Positions 48,591 to 59,174 of a DNA stretch of 64,000 nt are shown piece after piece. Source of the DNA: a virus (Duplodnaviria; Caudoviricetes). The notes under the pieces are model-generated. The model saw only the letters and a program-made list of their open reading frames with translations, searched no databases and had not been told where the DNA came from. How positions within the stretch are numbered: position 1 is the first letter of the stretch; each line of letters starts with the position of its first letter. The DNA lies in the IMG/VR virus record IMGVR_UViG_2845860650_000005, positions 32,001 to 96,000 of that record, one strand, 5' to 3'. The position numbers were made by a program, and so were the translations under genes.

Positions 48591-49406
48591 TTACGGTGCT
48601 AATTTAGCCTTTTTGTATCGATGTTCTATATACCACTCGGATAGTAGTGGGGTGTAGATTTTCATAATTTCCAAGACCATGTCTGCCATAATTCTGATTT
48701 CATCTTGGGCATTAGCTTTAGTTCTCAAATCCATCCAGTGCCACAAAGCTTCAATTGTGGATGACATTGAAAAGTCTTGCCTGAAGCATTGGGGTAGTGA
48801 GTACCTAGCATTTTCGTAGGGTTGCCCAAGCGATGTCCTTTTTTTAAAAACAACGCACCGATTATAGTATTCTGCTATATCAAACTCCCGCATAGTTTGG
48901 GTATATTCAAATGAATTGCCCTCGCGATCGCGCTGCCTACCCACTGGCGGAACATAAAAAACCTCTTCTACACTCAATTCCCCACTAGCCACCTTAATAA
49001 ATCTTTCCCCGGTGTACCTACCAGACTGGACTAAATAAGTGGTGTTCTGTTTTACAGCAAGTTCCAATGCAATCAAGTCTTCATCTAGGAGGGTGCAGCT
49101 GTCTTTGTGCCTGACAATTTGCATTACCGTATTGTGATCAAATCCTTTAAAATGAAGCACCACAAACCCGAAATTGAGAACCGAATAATGTCCCCTATCC
49201 CCAGCGAGTTGATGCTTGATAATTGCCGACTCCGATCTAGCATTGCTGGGCGGGACATCTTCCATTGTCCAGTGGTCAGATACACACTGGTGCTGCGATC
49301 GCCAAATTCCTTTCCCTGGTCTAGGGGATGAAGCATCGGTATCCAGTGCCACAGCAAAACCGTATTTTTCACAGATACAAGTGAGGTTTTTTAATTTGTA
49401 AATCAT
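48591..49406 (-). CDS. thyX: FAD-dependent thymidylate synthase
   Basis: GHYSVL, QIVRHK...VQSGRY, ENARYSLP, DLR...AQDEIR. Confidence 0.9.
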   Translation of the reverse strand: MIYKLKNLTCICEKYGFAVALDTDASSPRPGKGIWRSQHQCVSDHWTMEDVPPSNARSESAIIKHQLAGDRGHYSVLNFGFVVLHFKGFDHNTVMQIVRHKDSCTLLDEDLIALELAVKQNTTYLVQSGRYTGERFIKVASGELSVEEVFYVPPVGRQRDREGNSFEYTQTMREFDIAEYYNRCVVFKKRTSLGQPYENARYSLPQCFRQDFSMSSTIEALWHWMDLRTKANAQDEIRIMADMVLEIMKIYTPLLSEWYIEHRYKKAKLAP

Positions 49407-49817: not shown

Positions 49818-50030
49818 ATGGCTAAATATCAAAAGTGTCCCCGATGCTGCTTGGGTCTAATTGATCTTCCCCTTGGATGTATTGGCGAGTGTCCCCAATG
49901 CAAGGGAACCGGACAACTCCCAGAAATCAAACACTGTTGCCCGACAGGATGCGGCTACGAATTAGACCTAACATACAGTGTTATAGGCGCTCGCCCATCC
50001 ATGCCTGACGATTTTTTATCCCCTAAATGA
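49818..50030 (+). CDS. Small Cys-rich zinc-finger protein
   Basis: CPRC, CPQCKGTG. Confidence 0.55.
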   Translation: MAKYQKCPRCCLGLIDLPLGCIGECPQCKGTGQLPEIKHCCPTGCGYELDLTYSVIGARPSMPDDFLSPK

Positions 50031-50878
50031 ATCTTCCACAATACAACTGGTGGGGGTTCGGCAAAAATGAACCTCCAGAGCATCTCAAAACCAAAAAGCA
50101 ACTAGCTGGACTCAAACTCTCGCCAAAGCAACCAGTTGCCTACATCGACACGCCCAAATACACCCTCTACCTCTACGACCCCAGCAACCCCGACTCGGTA
50201 AAACCCAAGCGCCAAGCAACTCCAAAGCAACTGGCAGCACTACAAAAATTAAGAGAAAAACAACAAAAACGAAGAGAATACAGAGATTGGTGGAGATGTG
50301 AGGGTTTTATCGAGCGAGATAGAGCAAATGTCGTACAGTGGGTGCAAAAATTTTTAGAAACTGATGATTGGGTAATTTTGGATTCTGAAACTACAGGTCT
50401 TGGCGATGCCGAAATTGTGGAAATAGCCATCATTGGTTACCAAAAAGAAACACTACTTAATACTTTTGTTAAACCATCAATCCCTATACCTAACGACGCG
50501 ATCGCAGTTCACGGTATTACCGACCAAATGATTGCCAATGCTCCCACTTTTACTGATATTCATCCTCAAATTGTAGAAATTCTGGATGGGAAACGCATAC
50601 TTATTTACAATGCCGAAGCAGACCGAAATTTTTTAAACTATTGCTGCAAATTATATAAACTGCCCAAAATCAAATTTAAAGACCGGACATTTTGCTTAAT
50701 GACTTGGTACGCTCAATGGTGTGGCGATTATAGTAGCTATTGGGGCGACTATAGATGGCAACCATTGGGAGGAGGGCATAAAGCATTGGGTGACTGCCTA
50801 ACTGCCTTTGACCGATTAATGGAGATTGCCAAAGATGACCCCAACTTTAACTTACCAGAAGAATTTAAAGATTTATGA
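50027..50878 (+). CDS. DEDDh 3'-5' exonuclease with N-terminal extension
   Basis: LDSETTG, VHGIT, YNAEAD, HKALGDC. Confidence 0.9.
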   Translation: MNLPQYNWWGFGKNEPPEHLKTKKQLAGLKLSPKQPVAYIDTPKYTLYLYDPSNPDSVKPKRQATPKQLAALQKLREKQQKRREYRDWWRCEGFIERDRANVVQWVQKFLETDDWVILDSETTGLGDAEIVEIAIIGYQKETLLNTFVKPSIPIPNDAIAVHGITDQMIANAPTFTDIHPQIVEILDGKRILIYNAEADRNFLNYCCKLYKLPKIKFKDRTFCLMTWYAQWCGDYSSYWGDYRWQPLGGGHKALGDCLTAFDRLMEIAKDDPNFNLPEEFKDL

Positions 50879-51587: not shown

Positions 51588-52211
51588 ATGCGTACTGAAC
51601 TAACTCAAAAACAGAAAGAAGCGGCTGGATATCTTGCTCAGGGATTAAACAACAATAGGACGGCGGAGGCGGTTGGGTGCGATCGCGTGACTATTGGTAT
51701 TTGGAAGAAAAGCCCACTGTTTCAAGAGTATTTACAAAAATTGATTGCTGAAAGAGAGGCAGACAGAAAGAAAGCTGTAACCAAAGCAGTAATTCAAGAG
51801 GAGTTCGACCGTCGCGCTAGCATCAACGAATGGAAGCAATGTAGAGTCGAGGCAAATAAAAAGAAGCTAGAGCGGGGAAACGAGATTGTTGAAAAAATGA
51901 TGGCTCGTTTCCGCGATTTACCTCCAGAAGCTTATCCTCCAAGTGCGATCGCACAACTCATCAAAGCAGGTGAAGATATGATGGAAGCGGCTTTTGCTGC
52001 GTGGGGAGAAACTATAGATTTAGAAGAAGCCAAGCCAACTTATACAGCAGAAATGGCAGCAGTCCAAAAGTTAGTAGATGCTGGAATTCTTCCTACTTCA
52101 ATTCGTGAAGAAATTAGTGCAGCGTTAGATGAATTTGAAAAGAAAGCGGTGTCAGCGCTCAATCCTGCTAATGCATCAGTAGCAGAAAATTTATCTGAGA
52201 TAAAAGTTTGA
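51588..52211 (+). CDS. HTH protein, probable terminase small subunit
   Basis: LTQKQKEAA.YLAQG.....TAEAVGCDRVTIGIWKKSPLFQEYL followed by a helical body. Confidence 0.6.
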   Translation: MRTELTQKQKEAAGYLAQGLNNNRTAEAVGCDRVTIGIWKKSPLFQEYLQKLIAEREADRKKAVTKAVIQEEFDRRASINEWKQCRVEANKKKLERGNEIVEKMMARFRDLPPEAYPPSAIAQLIKAGEDMMEAAFAAWGETIDLEEAKPTYTAEMAAVQKLVDAGILPTSIREEISAALDEFEKKAVSALNPANASVAENLSEIKV

Positions 52212-54804: not shown

Positions 54805-55458
54805 ATGAAAATAAACCGACATGGAAAAGCTAAGGTGCTGACACAGCAAGAGATACAACTAATCTTCAGTCGCGGGCTAGACAACGGACGAGATCGCACA
54901 ATATTTGGCATCTGTCTATTTAGCGCTGCCAGAATCCGCGAGGCTTGTACTTTGCTGACTTCAGATATCTACACATCTAAAGGACAAGTCAGATCGCACT
55001 TTATCATCAGGAAATCAAACACCAAAGGAAAGCTGGCAACCCGCTCTATACCAGTAATCGAAGACCTCCGGCGATTGCTCATTAAATACCAACCCTTGGC
55101 AGGGGATAACTATCTATTCCCCGGACGCAGCAATGGGCATATCAGCCACGATTCAGCCGCCCGCATATTGAGAACTGCCTGCCAGCAAGTGGGTATTGAA
55201 GGAGCCAGCACCCACAGTTTTCGCCGCACTGCCCTGACCCAAATGAGCAATGCTGGTGTTCCTTTGCGGGTAATTCAGGAAATTAGCGGACACCGCAGTT
55301 TGGAGCAGTTGCAACGTTACTTAGAAATAACCGAAGAACAAGTGCTGGGGGCAGCTTCATCTCTATCTTTACTTTCCCCAGTAGAAGAAAATGTCGGGAA
55401 ATGCATGTTTGACGACATTGGCAAAGAAGTTACTCACCACAGGCAAACTCAATTATAA
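54805..55458 (+). CDS. Tyrosine recombinase (catalytic-domain-only, resolvase-like)
   Basis: RIRE, K, HSFRRT, SGH, Y catalytic set. Confidence 0.92.
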   Translation: MKINRHGKAKVLTQQEIQLIFSRGLDNGRDRTIFGICLFSAARIREACTLLTSDIYTSKGQVRSHFIIRKSNTKGKLATRSIPVIEDLRRLLIKYQPLAGDNYLFPGRSNGHISHDSAARILRTACQQVGIEGASTHSFRRTALTQMSNAGVPLRVIQEISGHRSLEQLQRYLEITEEQVLGAASSLSLLSPVEENVGKCMFDDIGKEVTHHRQTQL

Positions 55459-56609: not shown

Positions 56610-56724
56610 TAATTCGTAATTCGTAATTTTTAATTCGTAATTGTAATCAGTAAACCATTATCACTGATTATAAACTCGTATTTGCCTTTTTTAATTACGA
56701 ATTACGACTTATGAATTACGAATT
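56610..56724. repeat. Inverted AATTCGT/AATTACG heptamer arrays
   Basis: Direct reading. Confidence 0.85.
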
Positions 56725-58246
56725 ATAATTGGCTCATCCAATCATAGCTACTGGCATCATCCACATCTTCAGCGAAACTATACGCGAGCGCATCGCCTCT
56801 GTCGGTACTGCGTCCCAATCTCTTAATAATATCCTCCTTACTTTCTACTCGAATTTCACCAAACTTATTTCTAGAACCAGTGCGACTCCATCTGGGGGCA
56901 GTAAGGTCAGCTATTAATTTGGGGTCGTTGGGCAGCGCCACATCGTACCCATTGGCAGGGTCGAGCAATTCTCTTAAGTGCCACCACCAACGAGAACGTA
57001 AATTGAAAAACTTTAGTAACCCACTTTTATCTAAAGCTTCTGTAGCTCCTCCACCATTTAACCCAAACACCAATTTAGTGCCGCGCCGATTTAGGGCATC
57101 CACCACTGCATAACCGACACCCAAAGTATCTACTCGAATCTCTACTTTGTTAGTTTTACGAACAACTTCGATTTGGTCTGCCAAGGAGTCACCATCTGGT
57201 GTTTCTTTGCCTGGAAAAGCAATTATGGGCCCAATCCAATAATGATGCCGAGAAATTATCACGCTCTCGTCGCGTCCACCTCTTGCCACGTCTACACCCA
57301 AATGCGACTGTGGTGCATTTGGCGTCGGCGTCCAGCGTTTGACAGCGGCATCCACCCAGGCGCTCGGTATAACTTGCCAAGGATGGTCAATCTTAGCGAC
57401 TGTGGTAAAGTCTCCTCTTAGTAATTGCGATCGCAGTGGTTCCGGTAACCGTTGCAATACCGACCTATAGTTAGAATTTCTCAAGTAAGCATTATCTTCT
57501 AACCGAGATGGAATAAAGGTACGGCTTCGCGGTTGAATCATTTCCCCTTCGTGTTCAAATGGTTCGCCTGATGGGACTTCTTTCTCCTCATCCCCCACCA
57601 TTGCGTACCATCTGATTTCGCCTGGAGCAGCTGGGTTTGGATGCTCTGGGTTTAGCCAAGCTGCCCAGTACTCTTTAATCCACATTGATTCTTCAGAACT
57701 GGGAGGATTACAAGTAGCGACCACCCGACACCGAACCGATGGGTCTGAAGAACGGTTCCAGGTTATTAAGAACTCGTACTGTTTCTTAGAAAATTCTCCA
57801 AGTTCGTCAAAAGCTTTGAGGTCGTGTTCTACCCCCCGATAGGCTTCTACGCTGTCCTCGTGTTGTACCGCACCAAATTCTAAGGTGCGATCGCCTGGGA
57901 TACCACGCCAGATTTTATCGTTACTGTTATACCGAGCGATCGCGCCTAGAAGTCTGCGTGACTTTTCGATTATGTCCTTGAGTCGGGGATATTCGCGGCG
58001 GAAGATAATAGCCCGTTTGTGGGCAGATGTTCCCAACATTAGCAAGAGGGCCGTTTTACCCCCACCATAGGCATCCCCCTAAAAACCAGCGGCCCCGCCA
58101 AAGAGTAACTCATCTGCCGGGGATAAAAAAGCCTCAGTCTGCGGCCCGTCTTGGGGTTTCCATAACTGATCTAGCAATACCTTGGAAGCCCCTTGCACCT
58201 GTCGCGTTGTCCTGTCTAATGATTTACGTAAAGAGGATAACTTCAT
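56723..58246 (-). CDS. terL: Terminase large subunit, interrupted by an in-frame TAG within a 21-nt insert in Walker A
   Basis: ATG 58246: MKLSSLR...PQDGPQTEAFLSPADELLFGGAAG-F*GDAY-GGGKT..., FDEL, TCNPP, GVDVARGGRD, STDRGDAL. Confidence 0.88.
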
Positions 58247-58262
58247 TACTATTAACTAACTA

Positions 58263-59174
58263 CTAATTGCCAATTCTAAACGATTGCAAGCAATTATCGC
58301 ATTGCAGTAGATTTTTGTTTTTACCACTTCTCGCTGCTTGATAAACTTCACTACTATCACAAAACACACAAATATGTTTTGATTTAGTTCGCTCAACATT
58401 AATTGAAAATTGGCTTAAACAATCTTTACACCTGTGTCCCGAACCATATCTAATAGTATTAATACTTTTGCAAATCTTACAATTTGGACTTAAAAAGATT
58501 TTTGGCTTAATTCTTTTACCCCATCTGCCATTATTCCCAGTGGTTGCTGCATAACTGGGTATATTCAATTGAACTCTTTTGTTACTAATAACAGTTTTTG
58601 AAACCCCCGCTTGTTTCACCAAAGCATAATCAGGCATTTTCCCTAGCTGTTCAATAATAGTTTCAGAAAGTTCAATTTTGTTCCATCCACCCATTGCAGG
58701 AACAACAAAATTTGTTTGCAAGCATCTAGGAATTTTTAACTTTTCTCTCTTGTACTCTACTGATTTGCGATCGCACCCTAGTAATTCGGCAATATATGTA
58801 TCTGTTTGTTTACCTAATAAATTAATAGTCTCAGGCGTCCATACAACTCTTTTATTAGTCCCGTGGCCACCAAATACAGCAGACCCTTTGTTAGTAAGAG
58901 TATTTGTTATTGAGTAGAACTGTTGCCAAGCTTCTTCCTTTGCGATCGCCTCCTCTCTAGTTGCGTTCGTCACCAATTCAACCTCCCTGATTTGGGGTCT
59001 GACTCCTACAGCAAGCATCTGAGCTATGTATTTACCTTTTTCTGTTCTCTGCTTCTTCCCATCTCTAATGTGAGTATGCAACCTTCTATTAAGAGACATG
59101 GTTGTACGACCAACATAGAAAATACTTCCATCTCTAGGGTCAGCCAAGACATAAATATATGTGGTAGTATTCAT
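58263..59174 (-). CDS. Free-standing GIY-YIG endonuclease with HTH repeats and Zn ribbons
   Basis: YIYVL...FYVGRT...RRL..H...E...N; two LGK..D...A repeats; CxxC pairs. Confidence 0.8.
   Translation of the reverse strand: MNTTTYIYVLADPRDGSIFYVGRTTMSLNRRLHTHIRDGKKQRTEKGKYIAQMLAVGVRPQIREVELVTNATREEAIAKEEAWQQFYSITNTLTNKGSAVFGGHGTNKRVVWTPETINLLGKQTDTYIAELLGCDRKSVEYKREKLKIPRCLQTNFVVPAMGGWNKIELSETIIEQLGKMPDYALVKQAGVSKTVISNKRVQLNIPSYAATTGNNGRWGKRIKPKIFLSPNCKICKSINTIRYGSGHRCKDCLSQFSINVERTKSKHICVFCDSSEVYQAARSGKNKNLLQCDNCLQSFRIGN

Follow-up and report, generated by a model that had tools for sequence, protein, structure and literature searches.

A stop-containing gap in the Walker A codons of a Nostoc phage terminase gene, beside a GIY-YIG endonuclease gene, as a candidate for ribosomal bypassing

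The window analyzed here, which comprises bases 32001–96000 of the 119,421-bp virus record IMGVR_UViG_2845860650_000005, was found to carry a large terminase subunit gene (terL) whose Walker A (P-loop) codons are interrupted by 21 nucleotides (nt) with an in-frame stop codon. Phages and prophages of Nostocales have a set of short (6–76 nt), AT-rich inserts with stop codons in terL, none of them more than ~20 nt from the Walker A codons, and this gap is one of the set. Comparison of the affected genes supports the reading of the 21 nt as a selected coding gap, not damage, which would be skipped exactly, and it also supports that such inserts would travel with a free-standing GIY-YIG homing-endonuclease gene situated directly upstream of terL. 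The gap is most likely skipped when the protein is made, by ribosomes that would hop over the insert.

The terL gene is opened by a minus-strand ATG at 58246, and its frame reads ...ADELLFGGAAGF*GDAYGGGKTALLL..., translating across the stop (asterisk) as ...LLFGGAAGF*GDAYGGGKT.... An earlier reading of the stretch made from its letters alone (the sequence-only reading) had placed the start at this ATG, 67 codons upstream of the open reading frame (ORF) called by a program at TTG 58045 and in frame with it, and the sequence bears this out. The interrupted DNA reads GCC GCT GGT TTT TAG GGG GAT GCC TAT GGT GGG GGT AAA ACG; deletion of 58064–58084 or, equivalently owing to the GGT repeat, of 58067–58087 (21 nt) yields FGGAAGGGKT, as had been proposed. 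The P-loop of uninterrupted homologues is ADEL[LF][YF]GGA[AS]GGGK[ST] (P0004, P0029 and most of 161 loci). Since the restored peptide matches this motif, the ATPase domain is broken within its Walker A motif, the codons of which are cut as GGAAG/GGKT. The remainder of the gene is open, with 54 codons before the gap and 446 after it to the natural C-terminus and with no second stop or frameshift, in agreement with the earlier statement that terL has no other lesion.

The part before the gap, here termed exon 1 (MKLSS...ADELLFGGAAG; 58085–58246, minus strand), contains the motifs WKPQxGPQ and ADELL, which also occur in full-length homologues, and the PHROG terL profiles match across the stop. 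The gap itself (TTT TAG GGG GAT GCC TAT GGT; 58064–58084, minus strand) has the in-frame TAG (58079–58081) as its second codon. Exon 2 begins with GGG GGT AAA ACG (GGKT...) and extends over 446 codons to the stop (56723–58063, minus strand), matching the PHROG terminase large subunit families phrog_979 (8e-32) and phrog_2 (3e-29). Both profiles match only this locus in the element, which makes it the sole terL. A total of 4519 terL homologues was found, with Pfam PF03237 on many of them. Scans of the element with PF03237, PF03354 and PF17289 for a second terL gave zero matches, the present gene included; as these three models miss even the known terL, their negative says little. A search of PDB sequences with the full-length homologue P0004 gave no match.

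The virus record has direct terminal repeats and is rated 100% complete by CheckV, and scaffold15.1 of Nostoc linckia z4 (locus L083) is the same DNA (100% identity). The presence of the insert is supported by an unrelated public DNA run (X1, depth 47), in which the contig of a relative carries the same insert ends with 22 extra letters between them; the insert is therefore not an assembly quirk. This contig is ~84% identical and was aligned to window positions 57606–58175, the interior of its insert differing in length and the ends being fixed. The sequence-only reading had considered it equally possible that an insertion of the small dispersed repeat (SDR) type had simply inactivated terL in a decaying prophage, and had suggested a search of the host genome for the 21-mer. 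The SDRs of Nostoc, which Elhai and colleagues are said to have described in 2008, are reportedly 21–27 nt long and multicopy. The insert is like them in size class and host group but, unlike them, is single-copy: with up to 3 mismatches allowed, neither the element (119 kb) nor the host genome (9 Mb) has more than one copy of the 21/22-mer, and a dispersed repeat was ruled out on this ground. The inserts of Nostoc NMS7 and of two Calothrix strains (L085, L091 and L092, below) are likewise single-copy in their own genomes.

Related inserts were identified in terL loci taken from IMG/VR, from one genome per species and from metagenomes, by reading the DNA before a conserved anchor in each. Eight cyanobacterial lineages were found to possess stop-containing inserts of 6–76 nt inside the same ~20 nt at the Walker A codons. 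Apart from the 21 nt of N. linckia z4, these are an 18-nt insert in Pelatocladus (L086; GGT/TTT TAA GCC CCT ACT GGT/GGG), another of 18 nt in an IMG/VR contig (L270) which differs from it at 2 positions, 42 nt in the chromosome of Calothrix PCC 7716 (L092), 66 nt in Calothrix FI2-JRJ7 (L091, equal to L017), 39 nt in an IMG/VR contig (L007, equal to L002; 90% TerL identity), 76 nt in Nostoc NMS7 (L085; flanks TGGTAGT) and 6 nt in a Microcoleus metagenome-assembled genome (MAG) (L143, 2483–2488; GGG GGC GGT TGA GGC AAA). The L007 insert lies two codons further upstream between the flanks GTATgGAGGA and GTATcGAGGA, and the contig of L143 is of low coverage (multi=5), so that an assembly error is possible there. 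TAG, TAA and TGA are all represented among the inserts.

This terL is carried by 8 of 389 Nostocaceae species genomes, being interrupted in five and intact in three, and it is uninterrupted in L084 (Nostoc CHAB 5836, 88% identity), L168 and L169. In 401 genomes sampled evenly across the order, only the source genome was found, and the PLSDB plasmids yielded only distant relatives (identity ≤43%). No new stop-containing mini-insert was found in 80 metagenome loci except in the contig L228, and none was found in the non-cyanobacterial loci examined apart from this 5-nt case, TGAGT, which L228 shares with a Salinisphaerales MAG (L123, ~2480–2500). In Walker A it separates GGC, the last codon for Gly, from the codon for Lys; the stop follows this GGC directly, exon 2 is out of frame and there is no matched landing codon.

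The termini of the inserts are conserved, as (G/T)TTTTA at the 5′ end and CC(CC)TA(C/T)T plus 3 nt at the 3′ end, in terL genes which are only 47–70% identical. The ends of the window insert are common to those of L086, L270, L091, L092 and the X1 relative; the interior is free in length (18–66 nt), with the ends kept. Direct repeats of 3–10 nt flank the inserts of the window (TGGT), L086, L270, L007, L085 and L143, and those of L091 and L092 have no flanking repeat. Inteins are found in the same P-loop, namely in L003/L182, L010, L020, L145, L189 and the Aphanizomenon phage vB_AphaS-CL131 (MG209611.1; L264, 1043–3850), which is the closest cultured phage with 60% TerL identity and has its intein after GGGK. 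These intein-like inserts are ~430 amino acids (aa) in length, follow GGGK and end in ...THN before S/T. As inteins and mini-inserts occupy the same P-loop codons, the site is a hot spot for homing elements. A run of U followed by A opens six of seven mini-inserts, and transcription of terL might be slowed or attenuated there. At 58086–58101 on the minus strand, the G/C-rich P-loop codons and the U-run of the insert make up a hairpin with T5 behind it that resembles a weak terminator; it was not significant, with 1 such site found against 1.3 expected in shuffles.

The gene directly upstream of terL (58263–59174, minus strand; 303 aa) encodes a protein with a GIY-YIG domain (PF01541, E 2.6e-6, residues 6–85) at its N-terminus, followed in the translation by repeated helix-turn-helix-like modules and by CxxC motifs at the C-terminus. 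Its stop lies 16 nt before the ATG of terL, the position which the sequence-only reading had given, and it is the sole copy in the 119-kb element. With a catalytic domain, DNA-binding modules, an intergenic position and a presumed target beside it, the gene has the properties of a free-standing GIY-YIG homing endonuclease of the Seg/I-TevI kind. Its protein was compared by tblastn (cut-off E <1e-3) with all terL loci. A homologue directly upstream of terL was found in 4 of 7 interrupted lineages vs. 2 of 187 uninterrupted ones (Fisher p 8.9e-6, in a count that covers loci with unequal flank lengths and related lineages, and that leaves out L270, where terL begins at the contig end). Such a co-occurrence of gap and endonuclease is what the sequence-only reading had named as support for its proposal.

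The state of the nuclease is intact, decaying or lost across the carriers, while the gap persists. It is intact in the window (303 aa) and in L091 (319 aa, 37% identity), shortened to 226 aa (65% identity) in L085 and reduced to a 68-aa remnant upstream of terL in L086; no homologue was found by tblastn in L092, L007 and L143. In L085 (1480–2300) the C-terminal CxxC part can be read in another frame just before terL, the endonuclease thus decaying with the 76-nt gap kept. The two uninterrupted loci with a GIY-YIG neighbor are the distant relatives L150 and L259, and one further uninterrupted locus, L031, has such a neighbor only at E 0.009. No co-transfer of the 5′ segment of terL with the endonuclease was detected, as exon-1 identity between genomes with the GIY-YIG gene is not above that of genomes free of it.

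Several observations indicate that the interrupted gene is functional. The insert is the sole lesion in all seven lineages examined in full, with 53–59 codons upstream from the start codon and 446–478 downstream to the natural end; L270 has an open exon 2 of 454 codons. On both sides of every insert the P-loop codons are intact. The inserts of L091 and L092 were found by alignment to be homologous, and the insert therefore predates the split of these two Calothrix prophages. Between their terL genes dN is 0.058 and dS 1.31 (w 0.044), with w at 0.09 before the gap and 0.039 after it, so that the purifying selection after acquisition of the insert which the sequence-only reading had looked for is observed. 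The dS beside the gap is as high as elsewhere, which argues against a recent insert transfer or co-conversion.

The inserts themselves are also conserved. Between L091 and L092, differences are found at 6 of 42 aligned insert positions vs. 85 of 183 four-fold sites (P 1.1e-5), and between L270 and L086 at 2 of 18 positions vs. 84 of 124 four-fold sites (P 1.0e-6). The 9-nt sequence (A/G)CCCCTACT, immediately ahead of the final insert codon, is kept in four lineages whose TerL proteins are 65–70% identical and whose four-fold sites are saturated. As both terL and the insert have been kept, expression must cross the insert. Gene callers truncate these genes, and the elements could consequently be scored as defective.

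It is proposed, with about even confidence, that the gap belongs to a homing cassette resembling that of T4 gene 60 and MobA, in which ribosomes would bypass from GGU to GGU with the aid of a strong 5′ hairpin. The endonuclease would cut gap-less terL DNA at or near the P-loop codons and so drive its own spread, and the insert would break this target in the carrier genome and may thereby confer immunity. Ribosomes with peptidyl-tRNA-Gly would leave the take-off codon GGU (58087–58085), skip 21 nt and re-pair at the identical landing codon GGU (58066–58064), producing ...FGGAAGGGKT.... The hop may be helped by a stem-loop predicted by RNAfold just upstream (CCCCG...CGGGG; 58093–58122, minus strand), which ends 5 nt before the take-off codon, and by the Shine-Dalgarno (SD)-like AGGGGGA (58074–58080, minus strand), whose end lies 7 nt before the landing codon. 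The matched GGT codons around the gap and the SD-like AGGGGG before the second of them had been pointed out by the sequence-only reading and are present as described, and its remaining statements on the sequence are likewise correct.

Take-off and landing codons are matched in six of the eight lineages. The pairs are GGT/GGT in the window, L086 and L270, GGA/GGA in L007, AGT/AGT in L085 (giving GGSKGGGKT) and, with a wobble, GGT/GGC in L143. The 76-nt gap of L085 and that found in the X1 relative (21+22 nt) change the reading frame, so that a skip at these two must be independent of frame. In the window, folding of the 39 nt ahead of the insert gives z −2.9 to −3.3 relative to shuffled sequence. 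This pre-gap hairpin reaches z −1.2 to −3.6 in seven interrupted lineages vs. a mean of −0.32 in 187 uninterrupted ones (Mann-Whitney p 3.7e-6), of which 15 reach z −2.3.

However, a number of observations weigh against a cassette of the gene 60 kind. The stop of the window is the second gap codon (GGT TTT TAG) and is not adjacent to the take-off codon, as the sequence-only reading had cautioned; at take-off the A site would hold UUU, a common codon, and a stop directly after the Gly codon is found only in L143 and in the 5-nt case of L123/L228. The take-off hairpin UAGG/CCUA which that reading had proposed can indeed pair, but it is weak with only 4 bp, and the minimum-free-energy fold relies on different pairs. 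An SD-like element 5–8 nt before the landing codon is clear only in the window and in L007 (AGG, 6 nt before GGA), and is absent in L086, L270, L091 and L092. In the Calothrix lineages L091 and L092 the exon junction is exactly canonical, but AAC stands before exon 2 and the codons are not matched; re-pairing of tRNA-Gly cannot therefore explain these two. L150 and L259, with a GIY-YIG neighbor and an uninterrupted P-loop, speak against a strict one-to-one link of gap and endonuclease. The likeness to gene 60 and mobA suggested by the sequence-only reading is partly supported, by co-occurrence and selection, and a simple copy of gene 60 is made less likely by the unmatched codons of L091/L092 and the uninterrupted genes of L150/L259. 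Bypassing would not demand lengths divisible by three, yet six of the nine gaps have them, and the flanking direct repeats could be scars of the origin of the inserts and not decoding signals. As the interrupted lineages are phylogenetically related, the Fisher and hairpin tests overstate significance. The portal gene is not next after terL, whose neighbors are an integrase fragment and replication genes. A look-up of sequencing runs that contain the stretch listed none of RNA. As for a nascent-peptide signal, none that is specific can be read, since the exon-1 motifs WKPQxGPQ and ADELL are also conserved in uninterrupted homologues.

The unmatched Calothrix codons could be accommodated by an exact skip without codon-anticodon re-pairing, tied to the homing endonuclease, in which a sliding ribosome would be guided to its landing by structure or micro-introns of 18–76 nt would be excised from bacterial mRNA in a novel way; on the evidence of these sequences it is considered rather unlikely. 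Such a skip would be consistent with two features kept in all members of the branch containing Calothrix, a U-run where exon 1 meets the insert and a CCCCUACU-NNN-GGGGG hairpin where the insert meets exon 2. The form of this explanation that acts on the RNA, in which a processed segment would be cut out and its ends rejoined by a host or phage activity, is likewise given a small share of our belief. It is favored by the precise deletion which restores a canonical P-loop in every lineage, including L091 and L092 without a matched Gly codon, by the conserved termini and free interior length in terL genes 47–70% identical, and by possible pairing of the 5′ U-run with the Lys-Thr codons of exon 2 and of the CCCC near the 3′ end with the GGGGG of exon 2. 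However, the inserts are far below the size of self-splicing group I or II introns, they share no consistent 3′ boundary motif (ending in GGT, AAC, GGA or AGT), and bacteria are not known to have machinery for splicing segments of 18–76 nt from mRNA. That the inserts came with or because of the endonuclease and left a dead terL in defective prophages or plasmid-like relics is unlikely. Each of the three stop codons is found in some of the inserts, L085 and L086 have a decaying endonuclease, the relatives are found in bacterial assemblies (L092 in a chromosome) and the closest database proteins have been shortened by gene callers (P0002 438 aa, P0003 409 aa, P0005 320 aa), all of which a dead gene would accommodate. 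What speaks for a living gene is the single lesion in seven of seven genes examined, the w of 0.044 between two genes that share the insert, with selection on both sides of it, the intact P-loop codons beside every insert, the evolution of the inserts at a rate far below that of four-fold sites, and the position of this gene as sole terL of an element rated complete.

A switch at the DNA level, in which slippage between the flanking repeats (TGGT here) would on rare occasions delete the insert precisely and restore terL in a subpopulation, is regarded as very improbable. The 3–10-nt direct repeats in six lineages would allow it, but L091 and L092 have none, the sole X1 contig that bridges the site keeps the insert, and as the deletion would be irreversible, gap-bearing lineages could not have kept either the selection on terL (w 0.044) or a conserved insert. 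Least probable of all is read-through or recoding of the stop with extra P-loop residues tolerated. The gap lengths divisible by three would suit it; against it, the inserts contain TAG, TAA and TGA, the element has no tRNA genes and ends its long ORFs with all three stops, the frame is not kept across the gaps of 76, 43 and 5 nt, and no uninterrupted P-loop examined has extra residues at this place.

Other candidates were rejected. An alternative code or suppressor tRNA was ruled out, as no tRNA genes were found in the element, the three stops are in normal use (TAA 40, TGA 30 and TAG 15 among the 85 ORFs of ≥150 aa) and each of them is also represented in the inserts. Frameshifting at GGT TTT TAG was discarded because both shifted frames stop within 12 codons, and re-initiation after the TAG because the GGGKT codons are preceded by no in-frame ATG, GTG or TTG and the first start (TTG 58045) lies beyond them. 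A group I or II intron was excluded by size, the inserts being 6–76 nt long vs. a catalytic core of hundreds of nt, and an intein because each insert either contains a stop in frame or changes the reading frame.

The favored reading, bypassing within a homing cassette, was compared with systems known from the literature, and it appears that the Nostoc terL gap may work like the T4 gene 60/MobA cassette while standing outside that family. In T4 gene 60, whose cassette Bonocora and colleagues are said to have treated in 2011, the coding gap is 50 nt long. According to a preprint by Manning and Atkins on gene-60-type cassettes (bioRxiv 10.1101/2022.08.31.505936), their gaps can be as short as 20 nt, some carry a GIY-YIG nuclease in place of MobA, the signals include a 5′ stem-loop and a mini-SD 5–7 nt before the landing site, and the MobA nuclease may be intact, decaying or lost with the gap retained. 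The terL gap and these cassettes have in common that an essential phage gene is interrupted by a gap with a stop, that the Gly codons at take-off and landing match, and that a hairpin lies upstream and an SD-like triplet shortly before the landing site. In both, a free-standing homing endonuclease adjoins the gap and has decayed or disappeared in some carriers that retain the gap, and insertion has occurred repeatedly at one site. There are also differences: the gene here is terL, at its Walker A codons, and not a topoisomerase gene, the hosts are cyanobacteria, there is no sequence homology, terL is not divided between two ORFs that have gained extensions at their ends, the stop does not directly follow take-off, the take-off hairpin is weak, two members have no matched codons and the gap lengths form a 6–76-nt series. 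The nuclease also differs, being of the GIY-YIG and not, as MobA, of the HNH type.

Candidate bypassing has also been described for the large terminase gene of the Streptomyces phage Hau3, which has two 10-nt inserts led by UUA and for which a junction peptide in E. coli lends support (PMC10732093). Both systems have short non-coding blocks in a terminase gene whose flanks match adjacent sequence of uninterrupted relatives, and in Hau3, as here, the proposed signals are hairpins and an SD within the block. The Hau3 blocks, however, led by the rare UUA, are interpreted as a sensor of host state, lie outside Walker A and have no linked endonuclease. A selfish element removed exactly from the same P-loop of the same terL family is found in the TerL inteins (CL131); these differ in being ~430 aa long and open-reading, in following GGGK and in being removed from the protein, and as the present inserts hold stops no protein splicing is possible for them. 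UUA is not a rare codon in Nostoc. The byp elements of Magnusiomyces capitatus mitochondria, which Lang and colleagues are said to have described in 2014, are reportedly mobile, tens of nt long and situated in coding genes, with ribosomes skipping between matched codons; they are said to occur in many copies and many genes of a mitochondrial genome, with no linked endonuclease. Among the papers listed by literature searches on bypassing, terminases and homing endonucleases, no report of a Walker A gap beside a GIY-YIG gene was found, though supplementary tables may list more terminase cases.

To our knowledge, natural bypassing has been reported in print from very few systems, namely T4 gene 60 and its homologues, the Hau3 candidate and the byps of yeast mitochondria. 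The present loci offer a natural allelic series at one enzyme motif, having no gap or gaps of 6, 18, 21, 39, 42, 66 and 76 nt, which spans matched and unmatched codons as well as intact, decaying and lost endonuclease genes. With cultured hosts such as Nostoc linckia z4 and Calothrix PCC 7716, the signals by which ribosomes skip RNA are directly testable, as is the question of whether such gaps arise as immunity against homing endonucleases.

The packaging genes are scattered across the element. An integrase fragment of 217 aa is encoded at 54805–55458 (plus strand), an ORF with weak small-terminase matches lies at 51588–52211 (plus strand), a DNA-polymerase exonuclease-like ORF at 50027–50878 (plus strand) and a thymidylate-synthase-like ORF at 48591–49406 (minus strand). 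The HIP1 octamer GCGATCGC was found in 89 copies in the 64-kb window vs. 0.44 expected, two of them in the GIY-YIG gene and three in terL. The element, including the endonuclease, has the sequence habit of its cyanobacterial host, from which a long stay there is suggested.

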